A stretch of 64,000 nucleotides of DNA, from contig CAVVYR010000007.1 of NCBI GenBank assembly GCA_963752475.1, positions 416,001-480,000 of the forward strand. The letters are read 5' to 3'. The first letter of the stretch is position 1. Each line of letters begins with the position of its first letter. Source of the stretch: an uncultured Chloroflexia bacterium. Lineage in GTDB: Bacteria > Chloroflexota > Limnocylindria > Limnocylindrales > CSP1-4. A program made the translations under genes and the position numbers. Shown one piece after another: positions 6,242 through 28,630 of this stretch. The notes below the pieces were generated by a model, which was not told the origin of the DNA, searched no databases, and was given only the letters and a program-made list of their open reading frames with translations.

Positions 6242-6582
6242 CGATGCAGATGGTAGAGGGTCGCTCAGGTATGGGTGGTGGTACTGGTCCGCGACCCGCC
6301 GTCGGTCCTGTGTGCGGTCCGTGGTAGTGGTGTGCGGTTCGGGCCGCTGGCGTGGACTCGGCGATCCAACGAGTGGTGACACCCGACACCGCACATGGCC
6401 GATTGGTACTAGTACCGCTTGCCAAAGGTCATGTCGATGGGTGACTATCGGCGACCTGCGGCATAGGCCGTGGATGGCCGGATTCATCCCGGCGTACTTA
6501 TTCACTCCGAGCGGAGTAGGTATCTATCGGCGAACGGGACCCAGAGGCGAAATCGTGGGTCCGAACCGAAGGAGAGGCATCG

Positions 6583-9500
6583 ATGTACTCGACCAAGCGT
6601 CGTGGCAAGGGCACCGCGTTCCTTGCCGTCCTGCAGTCACTACTACTACTGACCGCGCTGGTGCTGGTGCCAGCATCAGCCATCGCCCAGGACGGCCACC
6701 ACTCCCAGGTCGACCTGGCCGAGGACATCGTCAAGGCCAACGCCGATCACCCCAAGGGCAGCCTCGGGGACCGCGGATTCAAGCTCCGCCTCTTCCCCCA
6801 GCAGCCCAAGGTCGCGGTCGGCGGCAAGGTCGTCGTGTCCGCCTGGGTCTGCCCCGGCTGGGACAAGACCCCCTTCGGCGGCCCCAAGGGTGACGGCAAG
6901 CCCGGTGGCGATGACACCTGCAAGCCGATCAAGGCCGAGTGGTCCGTCGAGGGCCCTGCCACGCTCGCCAACCACAAGGCCCTCAAGACCCGCCTCGTGC
7001 TCAATGCCGACGGTGCCGTCCGCCTCACGGCCGAAGTCGATGACCTCAAGCAGTCCACGAAGATCACCGTCAAGGGGACGGCCGCCAAGAACCGCGGCTC
7101 CGATGCCGCCGCGATCGTGAAGAAGGCCGCCCAGAAGGAGGCCAAGGCCGCCAAGGTCAAGGCCCAGAAGGCCGCCGCCAGGCAGGCCGCCGCCGAGCAG
7201 GCCGCGCCGCCGAGCAGGCCGCTGCCGAGCAGGCCGCTGCTGCCCAGGCCGCTGCTGCTGCTGCCAAGCCGGCCGCCCCCGCCGCCGAGCCCGCGCAGGT
7301 CGCCTCTCCTGCCGCCGAGCCCGCCGTCGAAGCGCCCATCATCGAAGAGCCCGCCGCCGAGGAGCCCGCCCAGGCCCCGGTGGAGGAATCCGTCCCGGCC
7401 GAGGAGCCCGCTGAAGAGCCGGCCGCCGAGGAGCCCGAGCCGCCGAGGAGCCTGCGGCCGAGGAGCCCAATGCCGACGAGCCCGAGGCCGAGGAGCCCGC
7501 TGCCGAGGAGCCCATGCCGAAGAGCCCGGCCGCCGAGGAGCCCGCGGCCGAGGAGCCCGCTGAGGCCCCGGCCGCCGAGGAGCCCGCTGCCGAGGAGCCC
7601 GCTGAAGAGCCCGAGCCGACGAGCAGCCCGCTGCCGAGGAGCCTGCTGAAGAGCCCGCCGCCGAGGAGGAGCAGCCCGCTGCCGAGGAGCCAGCGAGCCC
7701 GCCGCCGAGGAGGAGAGCCCGCCGCCGAGGAGGAGAGCCCGCCGCCGAGGAGGAGCAGCCCGCCGCCGAGGAGGAGAGCCCGCCGCCGAGGAGGAGCAGC
7801 CCGCCGCCGAGGAGGAGAGCCCGCCGCCGAGGAGGAGCAGCCCGCCGCCGAGGAGGAGAGCCCGCCGCCGAGGAGGAGCAGCCCGCCGCCGAAGAGCCTG
7901 CCGCCGAGGAGCCTGCTGCCGAGGAGCCCATCGAGGCCCCGGCTGAAGAGCCCGCTGCCGAGGCCCCGGCCGCTGAAGAGCCCGCCGCCAAGGAGCCCAA
8001 GGCTCAGGCTGCAGCTCAGGCCGTCACCGTCCAGGCTGATCCCCTGCAGATCGGAACGGCTGGCCTCACCAGCCTCGCCATCGACGCCAAGCTCGCGAAC
8101 CACACGAGCGCAGAGAACAACGGCGGAAGCAACGCCGAGAACTGCATCCGCTATACCCCGATCCCGAACGCGGCCCCCAACCAGACCGAGACGACCTGGG
8201 TCGATGCCAACAGCAACCCCGACACCGCCTGGACCGCCCACGGTCGGTACACGGTCCCGAACCAGCAGGGATCGGTCTGCCCACCGGACCCGTCCATCAA
8301 TCTGGACGAGCAAAGCTCCATCGGTTTCACGCCCGCTGCCTATGCGCCCAACGATGTCCCCACGGGTAGCCCCTTCCTGCTCGGTAGGTTCACGCATGAC
8401 AACAACGTCATCACCGGTGTTGACAGCCTTTACACGGGTGACCTGAAGATTCGCCTCACCGCCGACAACACGAGCACCCTCACCTACAACTGGGGCTTCA
8501 ACGAGACAAACAACTACCCCAACAGTGGCGTCTGCGAGTTCGGCAACGAGCCGTGCGCGGACAAGACCTGGTTCAACAACACCATCGACGACACGACCAT
8601 CACTAGTGGTGGTATCCCGTACCAGTTGGTGATCATCGGCTTCAGGAGCGACGTTGATGGCAGCTGCCCCGGGACGCCGTCCGGCACTCCCACCGACAAC
8701 TGGTGGACCGCCGAGGACACGACCAGCTACGGCTGCCTGTACGCCGAGCTGACAGAGAAGCGCGCCCTCAAGATCGTCAAGGAGGTCCTCGGCGCTCCGG
8801 CGCCCAACAAGGGCTTCCCCTTCACCTCCAGCAGTTCCTTCGGCACCGACAGCCCGTGGGACAGCAGCAACGGTGGCAAGACGCTCAAGGACGACGGAGT
8901 CAACGACTCCTGGGGTCCGAAGACGTTCCTCTCGACCGAAGAGGACGTGACGATCACCGAGAGCATCCCGAATGGCTGGATCCTCAAGGACGTCGTCTGC
9001 TCGGACAAGTACACGACCTACACCCAGGGCACCCACTACACCCTGAATAAGGGTACGGGCAAGCTCGTCCTGAACAACATCCCCGAGTCCAACAAGGCAG
9101 ACGCGCTGATGGTGACGTGTACCTTCAAGAACGAGCGCGATAGTGGCACCATCATCGTCAAGAAGAAGGCCGTCCCGGACGACGGTACGCCCTTCACGTT
9201 CGATCCGTCATGGAACAGCGAGCCGAACTTCAACCTGTTCCACAACGACAGCAAGACCTTCACCGACCTGCCCGCTGGCGTGGAGTACTCGGTCTCCGAG
9301 ATCAACATCCCCACCCACTGGGTCCTGACCAAGGTGGAGTGCAAGCAGGGCGAGCAGGTCCTGGCCGACGAGAACGGCGAGGCCTTCGAGCTGAAGCCCG
9401 GCGAGACCGTCACCTGCACCTTCACCAACAAGAAGGCCAGCATCGACATCGAGAAGGCCACCAACGGCGCCGACGCCGACAGCCCCACCGGACCCTTCAT

Positions 9501-12500
9501 CGCGGTGGGCAACCCGGTCAACTGGACCTATGAGGTCGAGAACACCGGCAACGTCGCGCTCACCAACGTGTCCGTCACCGACGACCAGGGTGTGACGGTG
9601 ACCTGCCCGCAGGACACGCTCGCCGCCGGCGAGTCGATGACCTGCACCGCCAACGGCACGGCCACGGCCGGCCAGTACGACAACCTCGGCACCGCCACCG
9701 GCACCCCGCCGGCCGGCCCGCCCGTCGACGATGAGTACCGAGCCACTACTTCGGCGCGGACGCCAGCATCGACATCGAGAAGGCCACCAACGGCGCCGAC
9801 GCCGACAGCCCCACCGGACCCTTCATCGCGGTGGGTGACCCGGTCAACTGGACCTATGAGGTCGAGAACACCGGCAACGTCGCGCTCACCAACGTGTCCG
9901 TCACCGACGACCAGGGTGTGACGGTGACCTGCCCGCAGGACACGCTCGCCGCCGGCGAGTCGATGACCTGCACCGCCAACGGCACGGCCACGGCCGGCCA
10001 GTACGACAACCTCGGCACCGCCACCGGCACCCCGCCGGCCGGCCCGCCCGTCGACGATGAGGATCCGAGCCACTACTTCGGCGCGGACGCCAGCATCGAC
10101 ATCGAGAAGGCCACCAACGGCGCCGACGCCGACAGCCCCACCGGACCCTTCATCGCGGTGGGTGACCCGGTCAACTGGACCTATGAGGTCGAGAACACCG
10201 GCAACGTCGCGCTCACCAACGTGTCCGTCACCGACGACCAGGGTGTGACGGTGACCTGCCCGCAGGACACGCTCGCCGCCGGCGAGTCGATGACCTGCAC
10301 CGCCAACGGCACGGCCACGGCCGGCCAGTACGACAACCTCGGCACCGCCACCGGCACCCCGCCGGCCGGCCCGCCCGTCGACGATGAGGATCCGAGCCAC
10401 TACTTCGGCGCGGACGCCAGCATCGACATCGAGAAGGCCACCAACGGCGCCGACGCCGACAGCCCCACCGGACCCTTCATCGCGGTGGGTGACCCGGTCA
10501 ACTGGGAATACGAGGTCACCAACGACGGCAACGTCGACCTCACCGACGTGGAGGTCACCGACAGCGACGTGGCCGCCAGCGCCATCGACTGCGGTGCTCC
10601 CGACAACGACAACGTCATCGAGAGCCTGGCGGTGGGCCAGACCGTGACCTGTGAGGCCACGGGCACGGCCACGGCCGGCCAGTACGACAACCTCGGCACC
10701 GCCACCGGCACCCCGCCGGCCGGCCCGCCCGTCGACGATGAGGATCCGAGCCACTACTTCGGCGCGGACGCCAGCATCGACATCGAGAAGGCCACCAACG
10801 GCGCCGACGCCGACAGCCCCACCGGACCCTTCATCGCGGTGGGTGCCACGGTCACCTGGGAATACGAGGTCACCAACGACGGCAACGTCGACCTCACCGA
10901 CGTGGAGGTCACCGACAGCGACGTGGCCGCCAGCGCCATCGACTGCGGTGCTCCCGACAACGACAACGTCATCGAGAGCCTGGCGGTGGGCCAGACCGTG
11001 ACCTGTGAGGCCACGGGCACGGCCACGGCCGGCCAGTACGACAACCTCGGCACCGCCACCGGCACCCCGCCGGCCGGCCCGCCCGTCGACGATGAGGATC
11101 CGAGCCACTACTTCGGCGCGGACGCCAGCATCGACATCGAGAAGGCCACCAACGGCGCCGACGCCGACAGCCCCACCGGACCCTTCATCGCGGTGGGCAA
11201 CCCGGTCAACTGGACCTATGAGGTCGAGAACACCGGCAACGTCGCGCTCACCAACGTGTCCGTCACCGACGACCAGGGTGTGACGGTGACCTGCCCGCAG
11301 GACACGCTCGCCGCCGGCGAGTCGATGACCTGCACCGCCAACGGCACGGCCACGGCCGGCCAGTACGACAACCTCGGCACCGCCACCGGCACCCCGCCGG
11401 CCGGCCCGCCCGTCGACGATGAGGATCCGAGCCACTACTTCGGCGCGGACGCCAGCATCGACATCGAGAAGGCCACCAACGGCGCCGACGCCGACAGCCC
11501 CACCGGACCCTTCATCGCGGTGGGTGACCCGGTCAACTGGACCTATGAGGTCGAGAACACCGGCAACGTCGCGCTCACCAACGTGTCCGTCACCGACGAC
11601 CAGGGTGTGACGGTGACCTGCCCGCAGGACACGCTCGCCGCCGGCGAGTCGATGACCTGCACCGCCAACGGCACGGCCACGGCCGGCCAGTACGACAACC
11701 TCGGCACCGCCACCGGCACCCCGCCGGCCGGCCCGCCCGTCGACGATGAGGATCCGAGCCACTACTTCGGCGCGGACGCCAGCATCGACATCGAGAAGGC
11801 CACCAACGGCGCCGACGCCGACAGCCCCACCGGACCCTTCATCGCGGTGGGTGACCCGGTCAACTGGGAATACGAGGTCACCAACGACGGCAACGTCGAC
11901 CTCACCGACGTGGAGGTCACCGACAGCGACGTGGCCGCCAGCGCCATCGACTGCGGTGCTCCCGACAACGACAACGTCATCGAGAGCCTGGCGGTGGGCC
12001 AGACCGTGACCTGTGAGGCCACGGGCACGGCCACGGCCGGCCAGTACGACAACCTCGGCACCGCCACCGGCACCCCGCCGGCCGGCCCGCCCGTCGACGA
12101 TGAGGATCCGAGCCACTACTTCGGCGCGGACGCCAGCATCGACATCGAGAAGGCCACCAACGGCGCCGACGCCGACAGCCCCACCGGACCCTTCATCGCG
12201 GTGGGCAACCCGGTCAACTGGACCTATGAGGTCGAGAACACCGGCAACGTCGCGCTCACCAACGTGTCCGTCACCGACGACCAGGGTGTGACGGTGACCT
12301 GCCCGCAGGACACGCTCGCCGCCGGCGAGTCGATGACCTGCACCGCCAACGGCACGGCCACGGCCGGCCAGTACGACAACCTCGGCACCGCCACCGGCAC
12401 CCCGCCGGCCGGCCCGCCCGTCGACGATGAGGATCCGAGCCACTACTTCGGCGCGGACGCCAGCATCGACATCGAGAAGGCCACCAACGGCGCCGACGCC

Positions 12501-14682
12501 GACAGCCCCACCGGACCCTTCATCGCGGTGGGTGACCCGGTCAACTGGACCTATGAGGTCGAGAACACCGGCAACGTCGCGCTCACCAACGTGTCCGTCA
12601 CCGACGACCAGGGTGTGACGGTGACCTGCCCGCAGGACACGCTCGCCGCCGGCGAGTCGATGACCTGCACCGCCAACGGCACGGCCACGGCCGGCCAGTA
12701 CGACAACCTCGGCACCGCCACCGGCACCCCGCCGGCCGGCCCGCCCGTCGACGATGAGGATCCGAGCCACTACTTCGGCGCGGACGCCAGCATCGACATC
12801 GAGAAGGCCACCAACGGCGCCGACGCCGACAGCCCCACCGGACCCTTCATCGCGGTGGGCAGCACCGTCAACTGGACCTATGAGGTCGAGAACACCGGCA
12901 ACGTCGCGCTCACCAACGTGTCCGTCACCGACGACCAGGGTGTGACGGTGACCTGCCCGCAGGACACGCTCGCCGCCGGCGAGTCGATGACCTGCACCGC
13001 CAACGGCACGGCCACGGCCGGCCAGTACGACAACCTCGGCACCGCCACCGGCACCCCGCCGGCCGGCCCGCCCGTCGACGATGAGGATCCGAGCCACTAC
13101 TTCGGCGCGGACGCCAGCATCGACATCGAGAAGGCCACCAACGGCGCCGACGCCGACAGCCCCACCGGACCCTTCATCGCGGTGGGTGACCCGGTCAACT
13201 GGACCTATGAGGTCGAGAACACCGGCAACGTCGCGCTCACCAACGTGTCCGTCACCGACGACCAGGGTGTGACGGTGACCTGCCCGCAGGACACGCTCGC
13301 CGCCGGCGAGTCGATGACCTGCACCGCCAACGGCACGGCCACGGCCGGCCAGTACGACAACCTCGGCACCGCCACCGGCACCCCGCCGGCCGGCCCGCCC
13401 GTCGACGATGACGATCCGAGCCACTACTTCGGCGCGGACGCCAGCATCGACATCGAGAAGGCCACCAACGGCGCCGACGCCGACAGCCCCACCGGACCCT
13501 TCATCGCGGTGGGCAGCACCGTCAACTGGGCCTACATCGTCACCAACACCGGCAACGTCGCCCTGAGCGACGTGACCGTCACCGACGACGAGCTGGCCCC
13601 CACTGATATCGTGTGCGACGGCTCCGACGACAACGTCATCCCGTCCCTGTTGCCGGGCGCCAGTGCGAACTGCGCGGCCACCGGCACCGCCGTGGCCGGC
13701 CAGTACGACAACATCGGCACCGCCACCGGCACCCCGCCGGCCGGCGACCCGCCGACCGATGACCGATCCGAGCCACTACTTCGGTGCCGTGCCCGGCATC
13801 GACATCCAGAAGGCCACCAACGGCCAGGACGCCGACGCCCCGACCGGACCGGTCGTGGCCGTGGGTGATCCCATCACCTGGACCTACGTGGTCACCAACA
13901 CCGGCAACGTCGCCCTGAGCGACGTGACCGTCACCGACAACAAGCTTGCCGCCAGCGCCATCGCGTGCGACGGCAGTGGCACCAACGTCATCGCGTCCCT
14001 GGCGCCGAAGGCGTCCGTGACCTGCAAGGCCACGGGTACCGCCGTCGCGGGCCAGTACGCCAACACGGGCTCCGCCACCGGCACGCCGCCGGAGGGTGAG
14101 CCACCGGCGGACTCCGACCCGAGCCACTACTTCGGTGCCGCTCCCGGCATCGACATCGAGAAGTCCACCAATGGCTTCGACGCCGACAACCCGACGGGTC
14201 CGGGCGTGCAGGTCGGTGAGTCCATCACCTGGACCTATGAGGTCACCAACACCGGCAACGTCACGCTCACCGGCGTGACCGTCACCGACGACCAGGGTGT
14301 GGTGGTCTCCTGTCCGAAGAGCACGCTCGTCGCCGGCGAGTCGATGACCTGCACCGCGAGCGGTACGGCCACGGCCGGCCAGTACGTCAACACCGGCACC
14401 GCCACCGGCACCCCGCCGGTCGGCGTGGCCCCGAGCGACAGCGACAAGAGCCACTACTTCGGCATCGAGGTCGAGGTCGAGTCCACCCCGCTCCCGACCG
14501 AGTCCCTGAAGCCCACGGACATGCTGTTCACGACCGACACCATCGGTCCGGCCGATGACGGCGATCCCATGGGTGCCCTGTTCAACTGGGCCCTCTGGCT
14601 CGCGCTCAGTGCGCTGCTCATCGTGGGCACCGCCGCGATCATCCGCCGCGAGCGCTACGCGGAGGTCAAGACCCGCCGCTAG
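6583..14682 (+). CDS. Giant surface protein copy 1 (frameshifted as assembled): signal, basic N-module, Glu/Pro/Ala linker, THxN/choice-of-anchor-like domain, 15 DUF11-like Ig repeats, C-terminal TM anchor
   Basis: Joins ORFs 6583-7563, 8626-9921, 9831-13868 and 13663-14682; colinear with copy 2; indels near 7205-7870, 9736 and 13764. Confidence 0.8.
9436..14460 (+). repeat. Intragenic array of 327-bp (A) and 354-bp (B) units: AAABBAABAAAA plus 3 divergent terminal units
   Basis: Unit starts GCCAGCATCGACATCGAGAAG at 9436, 9762, 10089, 10416, 10770, 11124, 11451, 11778, 12132, 12459, 12786, 13113, 13440. Confidence 0.95.
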
Positions 14683-14713
14683 CACCCACGGTCGATCCCA
14701 GACCGCATCCACC

Positions 14714-14749
14714 ACGAAGGCCGGGCTCGGAGAGGGGCCCGGCCTTCGT
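14714..14749 (+). terminator. Hairpin terminator after copy 1
   Basis: ACGAAGGCCGGGC...GCCCGGCCTTCGT. Confidence 0.75.
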
Positions 14750-15071
14750 CTCTGTCCGGCCCGGGGTCGGAGGAGGGAGCTACGGGCGGCGGACAGTCGC
14801 CGTCTGCGGTGCATGCCGGGCTGTGAAGAACGGTGAGGTCGCGCCTCGCCACGACGTTGTGGAACGGTGCTAGTGCGCACCGCATATGGCCGATTGGTAC
14901 TAGGACCGCTTGCCAAAGGTCATGGCGAGAGTGAGACTTAGCCTTCGCGGCTCAGGCCGTGGATGGCCGGATTCATCCCGGCGTACTTATTCACTCCGAG
15001 CGGAGTAGGTATCTATCGGCGAACGGGACCCAGAGGCGAAATCGTGGGTCCGAACCGAAGGAGAGGCATCG

Positions 15072-18000
15072 ATGTACTCGACCAAGCGTCGTGGCAAGGG
15101 CACCGCGTTCCTTGCCGTCCTGCAGTCACTACTACTACTGACCGCGCTGGTGCTGGTGCCAGCATCAGCCATCGCCCAGGACGGCCACCACTCCCAGGTC
15201 GACCTGGCCGAGGACATCGTCAAGGCCAACGCCGATCACCCCAAGGGCAGCCTCGGGGACCGCGGATTCAAGCTCCGCCTGTTCCCCCAGCAGCCCAAGG
15301 TCGCGGTCGGCGGCAAGGTCGTCGTGTCCGCCTGGGTCTGCCCCGGCTGGGACAAGACCCCCTTCGGCGGCCCCAAGGGTGACGGCAAGCCCGGTGGCGA
15401 TGACACCTGCAAGCCGATCAAGGCCGAGTGGTCCGTCGAGGGCCCTGCCACGCTCGCCAACCACAAGGCCCTCAAGACCCGCCTCGTGCTCAATGCCGAC
15501 GGTGCCGTCCGCCTCACGGCCGAAGTCGATGACCTCAAGCAGTCCACGAAGATCACCGTCAAGGGGACGGCCGCCAAGAACCGCGGCTCCGATGCCGCCG
15601 CGATCGTGAAGAAGGCCGCCCAGAAGGAGGCCAAGGCCGCCAAGGTCAAGGCCCAGAAGGCCGCCGCCAGGCAGGCCGCCGCCAGGCAGGCCGCTGCCGC
15701 CGAGCAGGCCGCTGCTGAGCAGGCCGCTGCTGCCCAGGCCGCTGCTGCTGCTGCCAAGCCGGCCGCCCCCGCCGCCGAGCCCGCGCAGGTCGCCTCTCCT
15801 GCTGCCGAGCCCGCCGTCGAAGCACCCATCAACGAAGAGCCCGCCGCCGAGGAGCCCGCCCAGGCCCCGGTGGAGGACTCCGTCCCGGCCGAGGAGCCTG
15901 CTGAAGCGCCGGCCGCCGAAGAGCCCAAGAGCGAAGAGCCTGCGGCCGACGAGCCCAAGGCCGACGAGCCCAAGGCCGAAGAGCCTGCGGCCGAGGAGCC
16001 CAAGGCCGACGAGCCCAAGGCCGAAGAGCCTGCGGCCGAGGAGCCCGCAGAGGCCCCGGTGGAGGAATCTGTCCCTGAGGCTCCCGCCGAAGAGCCCAAG
16101 AACGAGCAGCCCGCCGCCGAGGAGGAGCAGCCCGCCGCCGAGGAGGAGCAGCCCGCCGCCGAGGAGAGCAGGGCCGCCGAGCAGCCCGCCGCCGAGGAGG
16201 AGCAGCCCGCCGCCGAGGAGGAGCAGCCCGCCGCCGAGGAGGAGCAGCCCGCCGCCGAGGAGGAGCAGCCCGCCGCCGAGGAGGAGCAGCCCGCCGCCGA
16301 GGAGGAGCAGCCCGCCGCCGAGGAGGAGCAGCCCGCCGCCGAGGAGGAGCAGCCCGCCGCCGAGGAGGAGCAGCCCGCCGCCGAGGAGGAGCAGCCCGCC
16401 GCCGAGGAGGAGCAGCCCGCCGCCGAGGAGGAGCAGCCCGCCGCCGAGGAGGAGCAGCCCGCCGCCGAGGAGGAGCAGCCCGCCGCCGAAGAGCCTGCCG
16501 CCGAGGAGCCTGCTGCCGAGGAGCCCATCGAGGCCCCGGCTGAAGAGCCCGCTGCCGAGGCCCCGGCCGCTGAAGAGCCCGCCGCCAAGGAGCCCAAGGC
16601 TCAGGCTGCAGCTCAGGCCGTCACCGTCCAGGCTGATCCCCTGCAGATCGGAACGGCTGGCCTCACCAGCCTCGCCATCGACGCCAAGCTCGCGAACCAC
16701 ACGAGCGCAGAGAACAACGGCGGAAGCAACGCCGAGAACTGCATCCGCTATACCCCGATCCCGAACGCGGCCCCCAACCAGACCGAGACGACCTGGGTCG
16801 ATGCCAACAGCAACCCCGACACCGCCTGGACCGCCCACGGTCGGTACACGGTCCCGAACCAGCAGGGATCGGTCTGCCCACCGGACCCGTCCATCAATCT
16901 GGACGAGCAAAGCTCCATCGGTTTCACGCCCGCTGCCTATGCGCCCAACGATGTCCCCACGGGTAGCCCCTTCCTGCTCGGTAGGTTCACGCATGACAAC
17001 AACGTCATCACCGGTGTTGACAGCCTTTACACGGGTGACCTGAAGATTCGCCTCACCGCCGACAACACGAGCACCCTCACCTACAACTGGGGCTTCAACG
17101 AGACAAACAACTACCCCAACAGTGGCGTCTGCGAGTTCGGCAACGAGCCGTGCGCGGACAAGACCTGGTTCAACAACACCATCGACGACACGACCATCAC
17201 TAGTGGTGGTATCCCGTACCAGTTGGTGATCATCGGCTTCAGGAGCGACGTTGATGGCAGCTGCCCCGGGACGCCGTCCGGCACTCCCACCGACAACTGG
17301 TGGACCGCCGAGGACACGACCAGCTACGGCTGCCTGTACGCCGAGCTGACAGAGAAGCGCGCCCTCAAGATCGTCAAGGAGGTCCTCGGCGCTCCGGCGC
17401 CCAACAAGGGCTTCCCCTTCACCTCCAGCAGTTCCTTCGGCACCGACAGCCCGTGGGACAGCAGCAACGGTGGCAAGACGCTCAAGGACGACGGAGTCAA
17501 CGACTCCTGGGGTCCGAAGACGTTCCTCTCGACCGAAGAGGACGTGACGATCACCGAGAGCATCCCGAATGGCTGGATCCTCAAGGACGTCGTCTGCTCG
17601 GACAAGTACACGACCTACACCCAGGGCACCCACTACACCCTGAATAAGGGTACGGGCAAGCTCGTCCTGAACAACATCCCCGAGTCCAACAAGGCAGACG
17701 CGCTGATGGTGACGTGTACCTTCAAGAACGAGCGCGATAGTGGCACCATCATCGTCAAGAAGAAGGCCGTCCCGGACGACGGTACGCCCTTCACGTTCGA
17801 TCCGTCATGGAACAGCGAGCCGAACTTCAACCTGTTCCACAACGACAGCAAGACCTTCACCGACCTGCCCGCTGGCGTGGAGTACTCGGTCTCCGAGATC
17901 AACATCCCCACCCACTGGGTCCTGACCAAGGTGGAGTGCAAGCAGGGCGAGCAGGTCCTGGCCGACGAGAACGGCGAGGCCTTCGAGCTGAAGCCCGGCG

Positions 18001-21000
18001 AGACCGTCACCTGCACCTTCACCAACAAGAAGGCCAGCATCGACATCGAGAAGGCCACCAACGGCGCCGACGCCGACAGCCCCACCGGACCCTTCATCGC
18101 GGTGGGCAACCCGGTCAACTGGACCTATGAGGTCGAGAACACCGGCAACGTCGCGCTCACCAACGTGTCCGTCACCGACGACCAGGGTGTGACGGTGACC
18201 TGCCCGCAGGACACGCTCGCCGCCGGCGAGTCGATGACCTGCACCGCCAACGGCACGGCCACGGCCGGCCAGTACGACAACCTCGGCACCGCCACCGGCA
18301 CCCCGCCGGCCGGCCCGCCCGTCGACGATGAGGACCCGAGCCACTACTTCGGCGCGGACGCCAGCATCGACATCGAGAAGGCCACCAACGGCGCCGACGC
18401 CGACAGCCCCACCGGACCCTTCATCGCGGTGGGTGACCCGGTCAACTGGACCTATGAGGTCGAGAACACCGGCAACGTCGCGCTCACCAACGTGTCCGTC
18501 ACCGACGACCAGGGTGTGACGGTGACCTGCCCGCAGGACACGCTCGCCGCCGGCGAGTCGATGACCTGCACCGCCAACGGCACGGCCACGGCCGGCCAGT
18601 ACGACAACCTCGGCACCGCCACCGGCACCCCGCCGGCCGGCCCGCCCGTCGACGATGAGGATCCGAGCCACTACTTCGGCGCGGACGCCAGCATCGACAT
18701 CGAGAAGGCCACCAACGGCGCCGACGCCGACAGCCCCACCGGACCCTTCATCGCGGTGGGTGACCCGGTCAACTGGACCTATGAGGTCGAGAACACCGGC
18801 AACGTCGCGCTCACCAACGTGTCCGTCACCGACGACCAGGGTGTGACGGTGACCTGCCCGCAGGACACGCTCGCCGCCGGCGAGTCGATGACCTGCACCG
18901 CCAACGGCACGGCCACGGCCGGCCAGTACGACAACCTCGGCACCGCCACCGGCACCCCGCCGGCCGGCCCGCCCGTCGACGATGAGGATCCGAGCCACTA
19001 CTTCGGCGCGGACGCCAGCATCGACATCGAGAAGGCCACCAACGGCGCCGACGCCGACAGCCCCACCGGACCCTTCATCGCGGTGGGTGACCCGGTCAAC
19101 TGGACCTATGAGGTCGAGAACACCGGCAACGTCGCGCTCACCAACGTGTCCGTCACCGACGACCAGGGTGTGACGGTGACCTGCCCGCAGGACACGCTCG
19201 CCGCCGGCGAGTCGATGACCTGCACCGCCAACGGCACGGCCACGGCCGGCCAGTACGACAACCTCGGCACCGCCACCGGCACCCCGCCGGCCGGCCCGCC
19301 CGTCGACGATGAGGATCCGAGCCACTACTTCGGCGCGGACGCCAGCATCGACATCGAGAAGGCCACCAACGGCGCCGACGCCGACAGCCCCACCGGACCC
19401 TTCATCGCGGTGGGTGACCCGGTCAACTGGACCTATGAGGTCGAGAACACCGGCAACGTCGCGCTCACCAACGTGTCCGTCACCGACGACCAGGGTGTGA
19501 CGGTGACCTGCCCGCAGGACACGCTCGCCGCCGGCGAGTCGATGACCTGCACCGCCAACGGCACGGCCACGGCCGGCCAGTACGACAACCTCGGCACCGC
19601 CACCGGCACCCCGCCGGCCGGCCCGCCCGTCGACGATGAGGATCCGAGCCACTACTTCGGCGCGGACGCCAGCATCGACATCGAGAAGGCCACCAACGGC
19701 GCCGACGCCGACAGCCCCACCGGACCCTTCATCGCGGTGGGTGACCCGGTCAACTGGACCTATGAGGTCGAGAACACCGGCAACGTCGCGCTCACCAACG
19801 TGTCCGTCACCGACGACCAGGGTGTGACGGTGACCTGCCCGCAGGACACGCTCGCCGCCGGCGAGTCGATGACCTGCACCGCCAACGGCACGGCCACGGC
19901 CGGCCAGTACGACAACCTCGGCACCGCCACCGGCACCCCGCCGGCCGGCCCGCCCGTCGACGATGAGGATCCGAGCCACTACTTCGGCGCGGACGCCAGC
20001 ATCGACATCGAGAAGTCCACCAACGGCAGTGACGCCGACACGCCCGACCGGACCCTTCATCGCCGTCGGCAGCACCGTCAACTGGGCCTACATCGTCACC
20101 AACACCGGCAACGTCGTCCTGAACGACGTGACCGTCACCGACGACAAGCTCGCCGACAGCGCCATCGACTGCGGCGACGGCACCAACGTCATCGCGTCCC
20201 TGCTGCCGGGCGCCAGTGCGAACTGCACGGCCACCGGCACCGCCGAGGCCGGCCAGTACGCCAACACCGGCTCCGTCATCGGCACCCCGCCCGGCGAGGG
20301 CGAGCCGCCGACCGACACCGATCCGAGCCACTACTTCGGTGCCGTGCCCGGCATCGACATCGAGAAGGCCACCAACGGCCAGGACGCCGACGCCCCGACC
20401 GGACCGGTCGTGGCCGTGGGTGATCCCATCACCTGGACCTACGTGGTCACCAACACCGGCAACGTCGCCCTGAGCGACGTGACCGTCACCGACAACAAGC
20501 TCGCCGCCAGCGCCATCGTGTGCGACGGCAGTGGCACCAACGTCATCGCGTCCCTGGCGCCGAACGCGTCCGTGACCTGCACGGCCACGGGCACCGCCGT
20601 CGCGGGCCAGTACGCCAACACGGGCTCGGCCACCGGCACGCCGCCCGAGGGCGAGCCAGCCGGCGGACTCCGACCCGAGCCACTACTTCGGTGCCGCTCC
20701 CGGCATCGACATCGAGAAGCTCACCAACGGCTTCGACGCCGACAACCCGACCGGTCCGGGCGTGCAGGTCGGTGAGCCCATCACCTGGACCTATGAGGTC
20801 ACCAACACCGGCAACGTCACGCTCACCGGCGTGACCGTCACCGACGACCAGGGTGTGGTGGTCTCCTGTCCGAAGAGCACGCTCGTCGCCGGCGAATCGA
20901 TGACCTGTACCGCGAGCGGTACGGCCACGGCCGGCCAGTACGTCAACACCGGCACCGCCACCGGCACCCCGCCGGTCGGCGTGGCCCCGAGCGACAGCGA

Positions 21001-21238
21001 CAAGAGCCACTACTTCGGCATCGAGGTCGAGGTCGAGTCCACCCCGCTCCCGACCGAGTCCCTGAAGCCCACGGACATGCTGTTCACGACCGACACCATC
21101 GGTCCGGCCGATGACGGCGATCCCATGGGTGCCCTGTTCAACTGGGCCCTCTGGCTCGCGCTCAGCGCGCTGCTCATCGTGGGCACCGCCGCGATCATCC
21201 GCCGCGAGCGCTACGCGGAGGTCAAGACCCGCCGCTAG
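15072..21238 (+). CDS. Giant surface protein copy 2 with 9 DUF11-like repeats and C-terminal sorting/TM anchor (indels near 20045 and 20660)
   Basis: 1783-aa ORF plus 19963-20775 and 20762-21238; ends LKPTD...WALWLALSALLIVGTAAIIRRERYAEVKTRR. Confidence 0.85.
16102..16490 (+). repeat. 21-bp tandem repeat encoding EEEQPAA
   Basis: GAGGAGGAGCAGCCCGCCGCC repeated about 14 times perfectly, plus a few flanking units. Confidence 0.95.
18033..21015 (+). repeat. Intragenic array: six 327-bp A units plus 3 divergent units
   Basis: Unit starts at 18033, 18360, 18687, 19014, 19341, 19668, 19995. Confidence 0.95.
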
Positions 21239-21269
21239 CACCCACGGTCGATCCCAGACCGCATCCACC

Positions 21270-21305
21270 ACGAAGGCCGGGCTCGGAGAGGGGCCCGGCC
21301 TTCGT
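21270..21305. terminator. Probable bidirectional hairpin terminator between surface protein and sortase-like gene
   Basis: Same hairpin as 14714-14749, lying between convergent genes. Confidence 0.75.
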
Positions 21306-21338
21306 CTCTGTCCGGCGCCTGGCGGTCGGGGGAGGGAG

Positions 21339-22207
21339 CTACGGGCGGCGGACGATGTAGACGGCTACGACGGTGGCGCCGAGAAGGATCGCGCCACTGC
21401 CGAGTACCAGCGCCATGGCGTCGAGCTCCTCTTGGGGCTCGGTCACCGGCGCGGCCGTCGCCGCTGCCTGCCGGTTCGCGTTGTTGCTCGCGTTCCTGTT
21501 CTTGTTGCCCTTGGCCTTCGCTGTCGGTGCCGGGGGCGGCTGCCAGCAGGCACGTGGCTTGGGCCTCCGGCCGTGGCTCGTCGGTCCACGCAGCATCGAT
21601 GAGCCGGCCCGCGACCATCAGGCGTGGCGAGGCGCCGGTCGTGCCGGTGCTCGTCTGGAGCACGACCCGTTGCTGGCGCTCATTCGGTCGGTCCGCGATG
21701 TCGTAGTCGAAGGCCACGTCGACCTCGGAGATGCGGTAGGTCAGGAGTCGGCCGTCGCGCAGCTGCAGCTTGATGAGCTTGCCCATCAGCTCGGTCCGCC
21801 CGGACGCGAAGTAGCTCTCGGTCAGGGGCAGGAGCATGCCCGGTTGGGCGTGACCGTAGAGCCAGGCCGTCCCGGGCTGCCCCGGCAGCACCAGCTCCTG
21901 CTCCCTGGAGGTCAGGTACTGGGCCACATCGCAGAGCGGATAGCCGGCGGGGTTGCCGGCGACCTTCCGCCCTTCCCACACGACCGGCAGGTCGATGTCG
22001 AAGTAGGGGACTCGTACGCGTACTGGCCGCGAGCCCTCGTCGAGAGGCACCGGCCGGGCCGTGGGAGTGGTGGGGTCTTCCTGGGCGGCCGCATCGGATC
22101 CCGGGAGTCCGAGCGTCAGCATGCACGGCAAGACCGAGCGTGGACACGACCGTGAGGATCCGCCGCGCGCTCGACGCTGTGGCTGCTGACCGAGGGAAGG
22201 TGAGCAT
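21339..22207 (-). CDS. Sortase-fold protein (LQTS instead of LxTC) with C-terminal TM; two apparent frameshifts
   Basis: VRVRVPYFDIDLPVV...PGQPGTAWLYGHA...LLTYRISEV...RVVLQTSTG...PRLMVAG matches sortase strand order; N-term in 22207 frame, C-term in 21339-21596 frame. Confidence 0.75.
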
Positions 22208-22420
22208 CGCCAGACGCTAGCACTCCATCGAGGTTCGCTCACCGGGCCGGCTGACGGTCAGATGCCGGTACTTCCGCCTTCTGGCTGCTCCGGTCTGTTC
22301 GCGTAGGGCAGTCTCGGTCGGCAGGCGGCCTCGCGCCGCCGCGTGGTGACAACTGTCAACGCTCGCTATACTCACCGCGGACCCGCGTCAAGTCGTCGTG
22401 GCGCAGCGGAGGGAGATCGC

Positions 22421-23500
22421 TTGCAGGACCCTGCCCAGCGGATGGATACGCGTCCGCGCGTGGCAGTCATCGAGGATGATGCCGCGGTCAGACGTGTCCT
22501 GAGCCGCATCCTTGATGACGCCGGCTATGCCGTCATCGCCGCCCCCGACGGTGAGCTCGGCCTGCGCGTGGTCAAGGAGCACCACCCGGACATGCTCATC
22601 CTCGACCTGACCTTGCCACGCATGGACGGCCTCGAGATCTGCCGCCGGCTGCGTGCCGACAGCCGCACCGTGGCGCTGCCCATCATCGTCCTTACCGCGC
22701 ACACTTCGACCAGCGACATGGTGGCCGCGCTCGATGCCGGCGCCGACGACTTCGTGACCAAGCCCTTCCAGCAGGTCGAGCTCCTGGCGCGCCTGCGCAG
22801 CTCGTTCCGCACGCGTGAGGTCATCCGCCGCATGGAGCAGGCGCACGACATCGTCGTGGCCCTGGCCAACGCGGTCGAAGCCAAGGACCTCGGGCTCAAG
22901 GATCACTGCCGCTACCTGGCCTACCGCTCCGCGCGCCTCGCCGCCTACGTCGGCCTGCGGGACGGCGAGCTGGAGGGCGTGGCCTACGGCGCGCTGCTCC
23001 ACGACATCGGCAAGATCGGCATCAGCGAGCACGTGTTGCACAAGCCCGGGCCGCTCACCGACGACGAGTTCCGCGTCATGCGCGAACACCCCGAGATCGG
23101 CGAGCGCATCTGCGATCCGTTGCGCATGTCGCGCGACTTCACACCCATCATCCGCCACCACCACGAGCGCTGGGACGGTACGGGCTACCCCGACGGCCTG
23201 AAGGGGGAGGCCATCCCGCTCGGAGCCCGTATCGTGGCCCTCGCCGATGCCTTCGACGCCATCGTCCGCGGCCGCCCGTACCGCGCCGCCCGCACGGTCG
23301 AGGAAGCGTTCGATGAGCTGCGCAAGCACTCGGGGGGCCAGTTCGACCCGGGCCTGGTTCCGCTCTTCATCGAAGAGACGGACCGTGATGGCGCCGGCAT
23401 CGCCCCCAGCGTGGAGTTGCCGCGCGTGGCCCTGTTGGCCCAGGAAGCGCCGATCGTGACGGGCGCGCCAAGTGGAGCCGCGCCCGCCCGCGTCGCCTGA
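22421..23500 (+). CDS. REC + HD-GYP response regulator (putative c-di-GMP phosphodiesterase, RpfG-like)
   Basis: Receiver EDD/LD/KPF; HDIGKIG; HHHERWDGTGYPDGL; start TTG 22421 or ATG 22442. Confidence 0.9.
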   Translation: MQDPAQRMDTRPRVAVIEDDAAVRRVLSRILDDAGYAVIAAPDGELGLRVVKEHHPDMLILDLTLPRMDGLEICRRLRADSRTVALPIIVLTAHTSTSDMVAALDAGADDFVTKPFQQVELLARLRSSFRTREVIRRMEQAHDIVVALANAVEAKDLGLKDHCRYLAYRSARLAAYVGLRDGELEGVAYGALLHDIGKIGISEHVLHKPGPLTDDEFRVMREHPEIGERICDPLRMSRDFTPIIRHHHERWDGTGYPDGLKGEAIPLGARIVALADAFDAIVRGRPYRAARTVEEAFDELRKHSGGQFDPGLVPLFIEETDRDGAGIAPSVELPRVALLAQEAPIVTGAPSGAAPARVA

Positions 23501-23525
23501 CCCGTCGCGCTCGGAAGCGAGCCGG

Positions 23526-24311
23526 ATGACCGACACCCAGCTTCCGCCAAGCCGCATCCGCTACCACGCGGTCCGGCTCGTGCTGAAGGCCGTGACCAGC
23601 GCCTACGTGCGCACCCGTGTGGTCGGCGCCGAGCGTATCCCCGAGTCGGGCCCGTACATCATCTGCTTCAACCACCCTTCGTGGCTGGACCCGGTCTTCT
23701 TCGCGGCCTACTGGCCCGACCCCGATCGCGACCTCTACATCTTCGGGCCGCGCGAACAGGACATGAGCACTGGCGTGCGCAATGCGCTCATCACCTGGAC
23801 CCGCCGCGGCGTGCCCTTCCAGCCCGAGGCCCAGGACGTCGTCGACACCACCCGTCGTGCGGTGGGGGTGCTCAGGACCGGCGCCTGCCTGGCCATCGCG
23901 GGGGAGGGGCGCTTGAGCGACCACGAAGGCCGCATCCTTCCGCTGGAGACGGGCCTCGCGCACTTCGCCAAGATGGCCACGGCCCCGATCCTGCCCGTTG
24001 CCGTCATCGGGACCCGCTGGATCTCGTTCGGCAGCCGGGTGACACTGCGCGTCGGAGAGGCCGTCTACCCCGATGACTACGCCGGCGGCAGGTCTGGCGC
24101 TCGCGACATGACCGACGAGGTCGAACGTCGTCTCGGGGCCCTGCTGGAGGGCGTCGAGGAGCGCGAACCGCCCGGCTGGCTGGGACGCACCATCTCAGAG
24201 GCTTTCAACGACCGACCCTGGCTGGACGAGGAGCCCGGACGGAGCGCTAGTCGGCGGCTACCTGCGCTTGTCGAGGACCACGATGGCGTCGAGCCAGACG
24301 GTCGTGCCTGA
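23526..24311 (+). CDS. Lysophospholipid acyltransferase (PlsC-like)
   Basis: NHPSWLD (HxxxxD) and AGEGR motifs; true stop may be the TAG at 24250 if an indel is present. Confidence 0.82.
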   Translation: MTDTQLPPSRIRYHAVRLVLKAVTSAYVRTRVVGAERIPESGPYIICFNHPSWLDPVFFAAYWPDPDRDLYIFGPREQDMSTGVRNALITWTRRGVPFQPEAQDVVDTTRRAVGVLRTGACLAIAGEGRLSDHEGRILPLETGLAHFAKMATAPILPVAVIGTRWISFGSRVTLRVGEAVYPDDYAGGRSGARDMTDEVERRLGALLEGVEEREPPGWLGRTISEAFNDRPWLDEEPGRSASRRLPALVEDHDGVEPDGRA

Positions 24312-27300
24312 CGGACTTGCCACTCGCCGTGCCGGTCGCACGGAGTTTGACCACGTGCTTGCCCTTCGAGACATTGCGCACGTAGACGATGCGCCGGTCA
24401 TCGGGCTCGGCTGGCGTAGAGGTCGATGGTGTCGACGTGCTTGCCGTCCACGATGACCTTGACGCGACCACCGGTCGGCCCACGGCGGACGACGACCGCG
24501 AACTGCTGGCCCTTGAACGAGACCTTCGCCTGTGCGCCCCGTCGAGGACGTCCGTGCGAGGCGTCTTTCCGAGCGCGTCCTTGTTCCTCGTCGCCTTCCA
24601 CGAACCGCGGAGCTTCACGTTCTTCGAGCTGCGACGGCAGATCGATGGTCCGCAGCTTGGGGCTGATCGACTTCCTGCTGGTCGTTTCCGGCGACGGTCC
24701 TTCGCGGGGCCGTGGACCGAGCAGCCCGCTCGGGCCACGGGGGCGCCGGCGGTCACGAGAGGACCCTTGCCGGTCTTGGTGGCCATGACCTTGCGGCCAC
24801 AGATGACTCGGACCGCCGCGTTCTTCAGCCCTGAGCGCCCGTCCTTGGCGCTGATCGTGGCCTTGATCGGCACGCGCTTGCCGGACGCGGCCACGCGGCC
24901 GCCCTGGCGGATGCTGAGGCGCGGGCGGGTCAGCTTCGGCTTCGTCTTGTCGAGCTTGATGCCGTCGCGCAGGATCGGCGACTTGACCTTGTTCGGAGCG
25001 CGCAGCTGCATGCGCACGTCGTAGTTGCCCTGGCGCCGGCCGAGCTTGACGTTGAACCGCTTCTTGTAGGGCATCCACTTGGTGAACTTGCCCTTGCCGA
25101 CGGCGTAGCGCACCTGGACCCCGTCGAATCCGCGCAGGTCGGCCTGCACGGTCCTCGATCCCGGTCCAGGCCGCGCCCTTCTTGAGCTTCATCTGCCGCG
25201 AGAGCTCCAGGTTCAGCTGGCCCAGGCCGGCCGAGTACACGTTCCCGTCGAGCTTGACGCCGCCGTCGAACCTGGCGAGGCCCCACTGCCAGAACGTCCA
25301 GTCGCTCCAGCCGTTCGGCAGGATCATCGTGTCGCACTCCCAGCAGGCGACCCAGAGCGGGTAGGTGCCGAAGCCGCCCGGCGCGCCGACCACCTTCTCC
25401 CACATGTAGCGGCTGGTGTAGATCATCGGATACCGGCCGGTCTGCCGATAGAGCTCGTCGAGCATGGCGTGGAGGCGTGCCTTGGCCTGGGCCTTGTTGG
25501 GGGTCCCGAGCGACGTGAGCGTCTCGACGTCGACCACCAGCGGCAGCAGCCGGTTGAGCCCGCTGGTCTTGCGCACGATCGACAGGAAGTGCTGCGCCTG
25601 TTTCGTGCCGTCGACCCGGTAGTCGAAGAAGTGGTAGGCCCCGGCGAGCAGGCCTGCAGCGCGTGCGTCGGAGGTGTGCTGCTGGAACGTGTTGTCGACG
25701 AACGACGTGCCCTGGGTCGCCTTGGAGAAGACGAAGCGCTGGTCCTGGGCTCGGAGCGCCTTGAAGTCGGGCAGGCCGTTCCAGTGGCTCACGTCCAGCC
25801 CCAGGATGCCATCCGGGGTGGACCAGGGCGGCGGCTCCGGCGTCGGCGTCGGCGTCGGTTCTGGCTCGACGATGTAGCCATCTCCGTCGGGTCCGGTGTC
25901 GTCGCCGGGCGGGGTGTCCTCGACGTCCGCGACGCCGAAGGCAGCCGCCAAGTCGAGACGCCCGATGGCCATGTTCGTGGCAGCGGCGCTCGTCGAGAGC
26001 CGGCCGGCAACGTTGTTCGAGGTGATCCCGTCGGCGATCAGCAGGGCGGCAGCGCCGGCGACCTGAGCCGCGGCGGCCGAGGTGCCCCTGATCGTGCGGT
26101 TGGTGCCGCCGGGGTTCAGCGCCGTGATGTCCACGCCCGGCGCCGCGATGTAGGCGCTTGGACCGTCGTCGCTCCAGAGCGCCACCACGTCGTCCTTCCG
26201 CGTGGCGGCGACGCCGATGACGCCGGGGTACGCCGCCGGATAGGTCGGCGTGGTCACACCTTCGTTGCCCACGGACGCCACCACGACGATGCCGGCGGCC
26301 ATCGCGAGGTCGATCTGGTCCTTGAGTGCAGTCGACCTGTTCGGACCGCTGAACGCCATGAGGATGACGTCGACGTTCGCTGCCATGGCTGTGCCGATCG
26401 CGGCGATGATGTCCGCGTCGTAGCCCACACCGTCGGCACCGATAGCCGTGATCGGCAGGACCGAGACATTGGTCCAGGCGACACCGGCAATGTCCCGTGC
26501 GTTGTTCGTGTTCGCGGCCATGATGGTGGCCATCCACGTGCCGTGGCCGTGAGGGTCGCTGCTCGTACCGATAGCCTTGCCGGCAAGGTCCTCGAGCGCG
26601 GTATCGACGCCCGTGTCGATGATCGCCACAGTGGCGCTGCTACTGAATGTCTTGACTCCGTGCAGGGCCTCCCAGCCGATGTGTGGGAGGTGCCACTGGT
26701 TCTCGTAGAGCGGGTCGTTGGAAGCAGCGTTGACGGTCCGGGCGTAGTTGCGATCGACACTCCTGACGGCGGGATCGGCCTTGAGGCGATCGATGACCTT
26801 GGCGCGGTCCTTCCTGGGGACGTCAACGACCTGCATGTCGAGCCGGCCGATGGCCTTGTCGTTGCCGGCTCCTGCGGTCGTGATGGCGCCTGCTCGCTTG
26901 GCGTTTCCGGTGCCGGACTTGAAAGTGACGATGTACTCGTCGGTCGGACCGAGGTCGGCTGTCGAGGGCGTGCTCTGAGGCTCCGGCGTAGGCTCGCCAC
27001 TGGGCTGCGGGGTCCCCGGCTCTGGCGTCGGCGCGGGCTGTGCTTCTGGGGTCGTCGTCACCGTTTCGACCACATCCGGCTCCTCCGACGGGTCGTCTTC
27101 GGGTTCGACGGTCCCCGATTCGATCGTGGGCTCCGGTTCGTCGGGCGCGGCCGACGCCACTTCCGGCTCGACCGACGCTTCGGGCGTGTCGGGACCGGCC
27201 GATGCCGCTTCCGGCTCGACCGTTTCGGTCACGGCTGCCGATGCCGTCGGCTTCGGCTCGTCGGGAACCGCTGGCACCTCGGTGCCTGGCGCCACGGCAG

Positions 27301-28174
27301 CGAGGCCTTCGTCGCCCGGTTCCTCGGTAGCGGGCTCTGCGGTGGTGGTCTCCTCGGCCAGGGGCTCCTCGCTCGGCTCCGCGGTCGGTCCTTCGGTTTC
27401 GGACTCCTCGGCCCTCGGCGTCTCGGCCGCAGGGTCCGTGCTGGGCTCCTCGGTCGCAGATGCCTCGGGCGCAGTCTCCACGGGTTCCTCAGCAGCGGGC
27501 TCCTTCGGCAGGGGCTCGTCAGCGGCCGGGGCGGCGGCAGCGGCAGCAGCTTCGGCGGTGCTCGCGGCCTTGGCGGCAGCGGCAGCGGCCTTGGCGGCCT
27601 GCTCGGCGGCGGCCTGCCTGGCGGCGGCCTTCTGGGCCTTGACCTTGGCGGCCTTGGCCTCCTTCTGGGCGGCCTTCTTCACGATCGCGGCGGCATCGGA
27701 GCCGCGGTTCTTGGCGGCCGTCTCCTTGACGGTGATCTTCGTGGACTGCTTGAGGTCATCGACTTCGGCCGTGAGGCGGACGGCACCGTCGGCATTGAGC
27801 ACGAGGCGGGTCTTGAGGGCCTTGTGGTTGGCGAGCGTGGCAGGGCCCTCGACGGACCACTCGGCCTTGATCGGCTTGCAGGTGTCATCGCCACCGGGCT
27901 TGCCGTCACCCTTGGGGCCGCCGAAGGGGGTCTTGTCCCAGCCGGGGCAGACCCAGGCGGACACGACGACCTTGCCGCCGACCGCGACCTTGGGCTGCTG
28001 GGGGAAGAGGCGGAGCTTGAATCCGCGGTCCCCGAGGCTGCCCTTGGGGTGATCGGCGTTGGCCTTGACGATGTCCTCGGCCAGGTCGACCTGGGAGTGG
28101 TGGCCGTCCTGGGCGAGCAGGGGCGCGAAGCCTGTGCTGCCTGCCACGAGGACGAGGGACACGAGCAGGGCCAT
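24258..28174 (-). CDS. Secreted multidomain protein: shared N-module, acidic linker, propeptide, S8 subtilase, GH25 muramidase, basic beta-rich C-terminal domains (frameshifted at 24.3-25.2 kb)
   Basis: IIDTGVD, HGHGT, GNEG, GTSAAA (S8); GLDVSHWN, KATQG, GAYHF, VDVE, IYTS, WQW (GH25); C-terminus reconstructed across frames to ...LDAIVVLDKRR*; start uncertain (up to 28477). Confidence 0.8.
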
Positions 28175-28630
28175 GAACGCGTGGACTCGCGGCGTACGCA
28201 GCCACCGCCGAGCCTCGCGCAAGCGGGAAGCCCGTCCTCGACCAACCTGCGGCGTCTCGATGTGAGTCCGATCAGGGGGTGCTCCGTGCGGCGTCTCGCC
28301 GGTGCCTTCGCCACGGAGCGCCTGGTGCGCCAAGGCCACATCGGAGGCTCGGGGCACGCGCCGACCCGAGGCAGGCTGAAGCGGAGCCTCGGAGGCGTGG
28401 GACAGCGAGCGCGACACGCGCGTGGGCAACAAGCATGCCCTCCCTTCGGTCCAGCCCTCAGGGTCACGGCTGGGCATCGACGGCGAGTGTACGACACCTT
28501 GTCGTGTTTCACACCCGGCGTGCTCGTGGCTGCACCTGCCGCTGTTGACTCAGCGCACCAGCCGGATCAGCGCCGCGCGCAAGCACTCGCGCGCGGCGCG
28601 CCACTCCACGCACCGGCTACCATGCCTCTC

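Follow-up and report, generated by a model that had tools for sequence, protein, structure and literature searches.

Our analysis of a 64,000-nt window of the genome of an uncultured Chloroflexia bacterium revealed a 523-bp repeat in three genes, two of which encode tandem adhesin-like surface proteins (genes 1 and 2) and the third, in the opposite orientation, a predicted subtilase-GH25 cell-wall enzyme (gene 3). The repeat is most probably the result of recent, unidirectional gene conversion: the adhesin's tip domain would have overwritten the divergent version of this domain in gene 3. The features of the window are listed in Table 1.

Table 1. Features of the window; positions are counted from its first nucleotide.
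Feature	Position	Strand	Description
Repeat copy 1	6683-7205	+	523 nt: 22-residue spacer, predicted Big_2-like domain (6754-7083), start of Lys/Ala-rich linker
Repeat copy 2	15172-15694	+	523 nt; domain 15243-15572; within whole-gene duplicate
Repeat copy 3	27594-28116	-	523 nt; domain 27716-28045; in frame inside gene 3
Surface-protein gene 1	6583..14682	+	Signal peptide, module, Glu/Pro/Ala linker, SpaA_4-type domains, ~15 DUF7507-type repeats, LKPTD tail with hydrophobic anchor
Surface-protein gene 2	15072..21238	+	Tandem duplicate of gene 1; ~9 repeats; frameshifts toward the 3' end
Junction between duplication units	14795..14877	.	83 nt; no long match elsewhere in the assembly; right part similar to adhesin upstream DNA of relatives
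Sortase-fold gene beside LKPTD-tailed adhesins	21339-22207	-	Pfam Sortase E 3e-6; syntenic in all loci examined
Gene 3	24247..28477	-	Own signal peptide, module (probably copied), own linker, S8 subtilase, GH25 muramidase-family domain, C-terminal region
Conserved element upstream of gene 3	28417..28493	-	Outside the likely conversion tract; no Rfam match
Segment inverted by a copy 2 x copy 3 crossover	15695..27593	.	11.9 kb; holds the sortase-fold gene, response regulator-HD gene and acyltransferase; ancestral orientation
Segment inverted by a copy 1 x copy 3 crossover	7206-27593	.	20.4 kb

The three copies and the genes that carry them

The first-pass annotation had described three near-identical modules of about 520 bp, one of them inverted, with isolated substitutions such as KGT vs KET. 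Both observations were borne out by blastn and alignment: copies 1 and 3 differ at a single site (repeat position 394, KGT vs KET; 522/523 identical), copies 1 and 2 at three sites (one silent at 110, two at 513-514), and copies 2 and 3 at four. According to a blastn search with the repeat, these are the only full-length copies in the assembly (4.25 Mb, 38 contigs). As copy 1 is the closest to copy 3, it is the likely donor.

Genes 1 and 2 are tandem copies of one whole surface-protein gene, the duplication units being 6387-14794 and 14878-21353; for this reason the identity between copies 1 and 2 extends beyond the module, and a match confined to the module is seen in copy 3 alone. The earlier description of an identity that starts at the signal cleavage site and ends in an Ala-rich linker therefore applies to copy 3, where it runs from 5 nt before the Gln codon of A-Q-D (a cleavage site read by eye, without a signal-peptide predictor) to the inside of the linker, with both junctions in frame, but does not apply to copies 1 and 2, where the identity continues through upstream DNA, signal peptide and payload. 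Divergence between the two units is patchy, ranging from 0% over 1445 nt to 3-10% in patches: 7/72 nt differ in the far upstream part and 3/523 in the module, 28/486 in the first part of the linker and 12/371 in the last repeats, while no substitutions were found in the promoter and signal peptide (0/218) or in the unique middle part of the payload (0/1445). Such a pattern would fit an older duplication with repeated homogenisation. Gene 1 contains several frameshifts in the assembly. The arrays of DUF7507-type repeats of 327/354 bp occupy 9436-14463 and 18033-21019; many of these repeats are 100% identical in DNA, and their number differs between genes 1 and 2. About 200 nt upstream of each adhesin gene (6387-6582 and 14861-15071, both on the plus strand) are ~70-76% conserved across several relatives. 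As the two upstream copies are ~10% different in their far part, the duplicate genes may be regulated differently.

Many single-base frameshifts, the presence of strain haplotigs and a contamination of 5.8% (at 88.8% completeness) make it necessary to consider an assembly or polishing artefact, in which homogenisation or a wrong join produced copy 3, and/or two strain alleles were placed in tandem to give copies 1 and 2. We find this decidedly unlikely. First, polishing cannot convert a protein domain of ~35% identity into its paralogue. Second, the reading frame of gene 3 is open across both repeat junctions. Third, a short-read contig of run X1, matching 28093-28612 with one mismatch, passes from the DNA upstream of gene 3 into the repeat, where it extends for 24 nt (the bar for bridging being 31 nt). 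As to the tandem pair, the changes in the tails of the units are mostly silent (10 silent, 5 replacement), the junction is unique and yet partly homologous to adhesin upstream DNA, and three relatives (G050, G052, G058) likewise have two genes at the adhesin site. The tandem pair is nevertheless less secure than copy 3, some doubt attaching to the former and very little to the latter. Depth in X1 was 16.2 over the module vs 5.8-6.3 in the flanking contigs, which fits two to three copies, contig depth not being a copy number. Run X1, of which only short-read contigs were examined, may be the source sample; runs X2-X4 accounted for small shares only. Single-base insertions at 24638, 24683, 24696, and 25158 are absent from the X1 contigs, so the respective frameshifts of gene 3 are probably assembly errors. 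The KET variant was also considered as an assembly error on the basis of the X1 letter at 27723, and this was rejected because X1 contigs drop minority alleles.

Gene 3 encodes an S8 subtilase (Pfam E 1e-30) and a GH25 domain (E 8e-39); the position of its start codon is uncertain (28477 to 28174). The element upstream of it, 60-90 nt long, contains a short inverted repeat and is 68-85% conserved in 10 of the compared relatives' loci, above the level of the surrounding DNA. It is possibly a regulatory RNA or an operator of the predicted cell-wall hydrolase. A scan of 4000-30000 against Rfam yielded 0 matches at E<=1, and a scan of 14000-29000 for sigma-70 promoters and terminators yielded 0 promoters, with terminators at the chance level.

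A Big_2-like domain at the tip of secreted proteins

What the first-pass annotation had called an unrecognised Lys-rich domain with two Cys residues is recognisable as Big_2-like by structure prediction and profile comparison. The structure predicted from an alignment of 16 homologues is all-beta, with seven strands (mean pLDDT 89.9). Among 48,161 chains, this predicted model matched LigA best (Z 9.7, rmsd 2.8, 85 aligned), followed by Big_2-CBM56 (Z 8.8), SbsC (8.7), invasin (8.1), and intimin (8.1); a Foldseek search of the PDB with the domain model gave nothing at E<=0.001. Weak sequence matches (E 0.0025) were found between the domain profile and LigB domains. Comparison with Big_2 repeats by hhalign yielded a match at 95.1% (E 3e-8, 84 columns), in which the Cys-bounded loop is an insertion; the 17 template repeats came from three Pfam-called Big_2 proteins chosen for matching half the profile, a choice that favours a match. 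Pfam assigned 0 families to the window's domain, the cut-off for Big_2 (PF02368) not being reached, and matched Big_2 in one of the 16 aligned members (E 5e-4). In the ESM Atlas, recognition (2188) was below the bar, the top hits were unnamed, and the named ones were Big_2-type and under 0.9, which we take as a lead only. The domain is thus like the Pfam family of intimin, invasin, and Lig domains in its predicted fold, strand pattern, and 84-column profile match, but differs from it in the inserted Cys-bounded acidic loop and in occurring mostly singly, at the N-terminal tip, with no long arrays. It is predicted to be a Big_2-like Ig domain and is not a formal member of the Pfam family.

The domain census covered 148 of the 150 listed representatives of 822 matches at E<=0.001. 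Among the matches listed, 63 domains were full; two Cys residues were conserved in 61 of them, and an acidic loop similar to G-x-D-x-x-P-x-T-x-D-D in 55. The full-length domain was found in 57 of the proteins listed, near the N-terminus in 49, at the C-terminus in five, and internally in three, while 90 of the representatives listed had partial matches only. Judging from its sequence, a disulfide likely closes the loop, and Ca2+ binding is possible; in the form G-x-D-x-x-P-G-T-x-D-D the loop resembles the calcium loop of type II secretion pseudopilins. Domain carriers among the 25 proteins scanned include SpaA, DUF11, vWA, CAP, BNR, and dockerin proteins. The spread of the domain over many unrelated secreted proteins suggests that it is a generic docking or spacer tip, and therefore an exchange of one paralogue for another probably costs little.

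Within the genus, the domain was found in 23 of 49 genomes (54 matches), while it was absent from all 16 genomes of another family searched with a single-protein query. A homologue search among longer proteins retained three of 428 candidates, two of which were the window's own. In the Limnocylindria literature on surface and genome, surveyed by titles and abstract openings, such proteins were not found; the domain may still be described elsewhere. A truncated copy of the domain forms the C-terminus of a broken gene elsewhere in the assembly (G000 C6:19527-19751, minus strand), its counterpart in G013 being intact.

Gene 3 in relatives and the origin of copy 3

The gene order M14 peptidase, adhesin, sortase-fold gene, regulator-HD gene, acyltransferase, gene 3, dnaE was found in 16 of the 16 fully fetched relative loci; in G024, the sortase gene alone is flipped within the otherwise kept order. 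Gene 3, which lies beside dnaE (L023-L030), is a modular predicted wall hydrolase. It was seen in 17 relatives in two forms: a short one with a signal peptide, a Pro/Thr linker, and GH25 as the only such domain (14 of 17), and a long one with a tip domain of its own, subtilase, and GH25 (G005, G009, and G056).

On both sides of copy 3, the sequence is orthologous to gene 3 of G005, with identities of 50% in the signal region, 61-66% in the subtilase, and 77% in GH25. Accordingly, the earlier statement that the signal peptide and payload of the third gene are unrelated to the others is correct with respect to the adhesin, yet both have orthologues in the syntenic gene of relatives. G005 and G009 likewise have the A-Q-D motif in their gene-3 orthologues. 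In G005, G009, and G056 the gene-3 domain is 31, 31, and 40% identical, respectively, to the adhesin domain of the same genome, and these gene-3 domains are 54-80% identical among themselves.

The history of the domain itself is different from that of the flanks. In a tree of 44 of the 51 domain hits (seven short hits were dropped), a starred clade (97/91) unites the window's three copies with adhesin domains from G013, G014, and G049, and the gene-3 domains form a separate clade (93/89), apart from the window copies. Constraining copy 3 to the gene-3 domains was rejected (p-AU 0.003) in a test run after the first tree on 108 columns and 37 rows, seven of the 44 being omitted (copies 1 and 2, three long branches, and two duplicates). 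Hence the tract groups with the adhesin, while its flanks group with gene 3 of G005, G009, and G056, as is characteristic of interlocus conversion. Moreover, copies within the genome are far closer than orthologous positions between genomes: the window's domain has at most 54% protein identity to any of the 41 other domain rows, against 99-100% within the genome. Finally, all three copies are adhesin-type, and there was no gene-3-type domain among the seven domain matches in this incomplete assembly. Since the exchange is non-reciprocal, conversion is the best reading, and copy 3 is likely the conversion tract. Of the two origins offered by the first-pass annotation, recent domain shuffling or gene conversion, the latter stands, with the direction from adhesin to hydrolase supported by the tree and the AU test; shuffling into three genes claims too much, as two of them are whole-gene duplicates and gene-3 orthologues already had a paralogous domain at this place.

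The non-reciprocal pattern also bears on an inversion followed by re-inversion at two different points. This is disfavoured because the adhesin would then carry a gene-3-type domain, and none was found. Alternatively, gene 3 of this lineage could have had no domain, the module being gained by insertion of a copied segment rather than by replacement. The prevalence of the domain-free form (14/17 relatives) is consistent with such a gain, particularly as it includes G013 and G014, two of the nearest relatives, whose adhesin domains rank among the closest and whose gene 3 lacks both the subtilase and the domain. However, all three subtilase-bearing syntenic orthologues have the domain at exactly the same position, and in gene 3 itself the nearest relatives of the window are G005 and G056 (77-78% identity in GH25 vs 68% to G013/G014); the gain is therefore considered unlikely.

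Under gene conversion, homology-guided repair would have copied the adhesin module, copy 1 being closer, into gene 3; RecA is encoded, recA being present in the assembly. The ends of the tract would correspond to stretches that both genes already shared, namely, at the cleavage site, the codons for A-Q-D and, at the other end, the low-complexity linker rich in Ala. With such ends, the frame would be preserved and gene 3 would keep its promoter, signal peptide, and payload unchanged. A same-species relative with the pre-conversion state was not found, the best DNA matches to the module being ~68% identical, and a scan of metagenome contigs with the module gave 245 pattern matches, 0 of them confirmed.

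Domain pairs within nine other genomes are 24-53% identical in 24 cases out of 25; in the remaining case the two domains are identical and lie next to each other as a repeat in a single ORF. For this reason, homogenisation is particular to this genome among those examined. In several relatives, two different tandem surface-protein genes with divergent tip domains occupy the adhesin site (L061/L062 of G050, with 25% identity between the tips; L063 of G058; L070 of G052), so this site tends to hold arrays.

Elsewhere in the assembly, identical domains on contigs C6 and C3 were considered as a second conversion; this candidate was rejected, since along their entire length C2 and C3 represent strain variants of the C6 locus. 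The C6 locus (G000 C6:734800-755100) has the same surface-gene upstream DNA and tip-domain family as C2/C3, but the payload of C2 differs, which amounts to allelic payload exchange at a second locus. Of the other long repeats, nine pairs out of 51 were translated and proved to be insertion sequences, tuf, phage terminase, or duplicates of whole genes, with one pair on C36 perhaps a partial duplicate. A 732-bp direct repeat on that contig (99.7%; G000 C36:25666-26397 and 27395-28126) is common to two adjacent genes whose N-terminal leaders differ, and homogenisation of part of a gene may have occurred here as well.

Known systems and the possibility of inversion

Gene conversion between surface genes is an already known kind of event. 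The near-identical N-terminal Big_2 region common to ligA and ligB of Leptospira has been attributed to it (PMC7821625), and, as in that system, neighbouring surface-protein genes of the window combine different C-terminal parts with a near-identical N-terminal Big_2-type stretch. However, the Leptospira tract is described as including the promoter and signal peptide and 6.5 domains, in tandem genes (PMC7821625), whereas the tract with gene 3 includes no promoter or signal peptide and consists of a single domain; it is in inverted orientation and connects an adhesin-like gene with a predicted protease-muramidase. The babA, babB, and babC genes of Helicobacter pylori are reported to replace one another by intrachromosomal recombination, homology at the gene ends allowing one adhesin paralogue to take the place of another (PMC4271554). 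The likeness lies in the homology-driven replacement; there it concerns whole paralogous adhesins at distant loci, and here one domain between proteins of different function.

As the first-pass annotation pointed out, the inverted repeat could invert ~12-21 kb and swap payloads. In principle this is possible, since a crossover of copy 3 with copy 1 or copy 2 would leave both genes in frame, each payload now behind the other gene's promoter and signal peptide. Any repeat of this kind is expected to undergo rare inversion by RecA, and, apart from the Lactobacillus acidophilus slpA/slpB inversion, that of the Campylobacter fetus sap genes is another known one. In the slpA/slpB system, a chromosomal inversion, found in 0.3% of chromosomes, changes which surface-protein gene follows the promoter (PMC3666127), and the geometry of the window would permit the same: the genes are convergent, and 523 bp of near-perfect inverted homology lie in two oppositely oriented surface genes. 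With recA present, RecA crossovers could thus operate a recombinase-free switch that inverts 12-20 kb and exchanges payloads between the promoters and signal peptides of adhesin and hydrolase.

Several observations make such a switch very improbable. A blastn search with the repeat found no chimeric (inverted) junction in the assembly, where one orientation is seen, although strain variants of other loci survive as separate contigs. The gene order is ancestral in every fully seen relative locus, and no relative examined has such a repeat; as follows from the low identity of within-genome domain pairs elsewhere, it is not a conserved device. The slpA/slpB inversion has been observed, and one of the two genes is silent (PMC3666127); in the window, an inverted state was not seen, and gene 3, with its own conserved upstream element retained, does not look like a silent cassette. 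Site-specific invertible systems have a recombinase gene at or near the segment; on contig C7, which carries the window, there were no matches to the tyrosine, serine, and IS110 recombinase families searched (PF00589, PF00239, PF01548, and PF07508), the whole assembly, 88.8% complete, having three, zero, seven, and one weak match, respectively; a recombinase from elsewhere could still act. Equally improbable is the fuller picture of a live phase switch exchanging a giant sortase-tailed adhesin and a subtilase-muramidase, which would toggle the cell between sticking and wall remodelling or release, and having an undescribed Ig docking tip with a disulfide and a calcium loop. Only a demonstration that the segment flips in the population would give the locus wider interest.

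The most probable reading, conversion of gene 3 by the adhesin, provides a clean case, dated by identity, of a domain copied between functionally different surface proteins in an uncultured lineage, with the direction and the tract ends readable from relatives. Furthermore, the comparison defines a predicted Ig-domain subfamily that is missed by Pfam and forms the tip of many secreted proteins of the genus. Both the conversion case and the subfamily are within known biology and should be useful for annotation.
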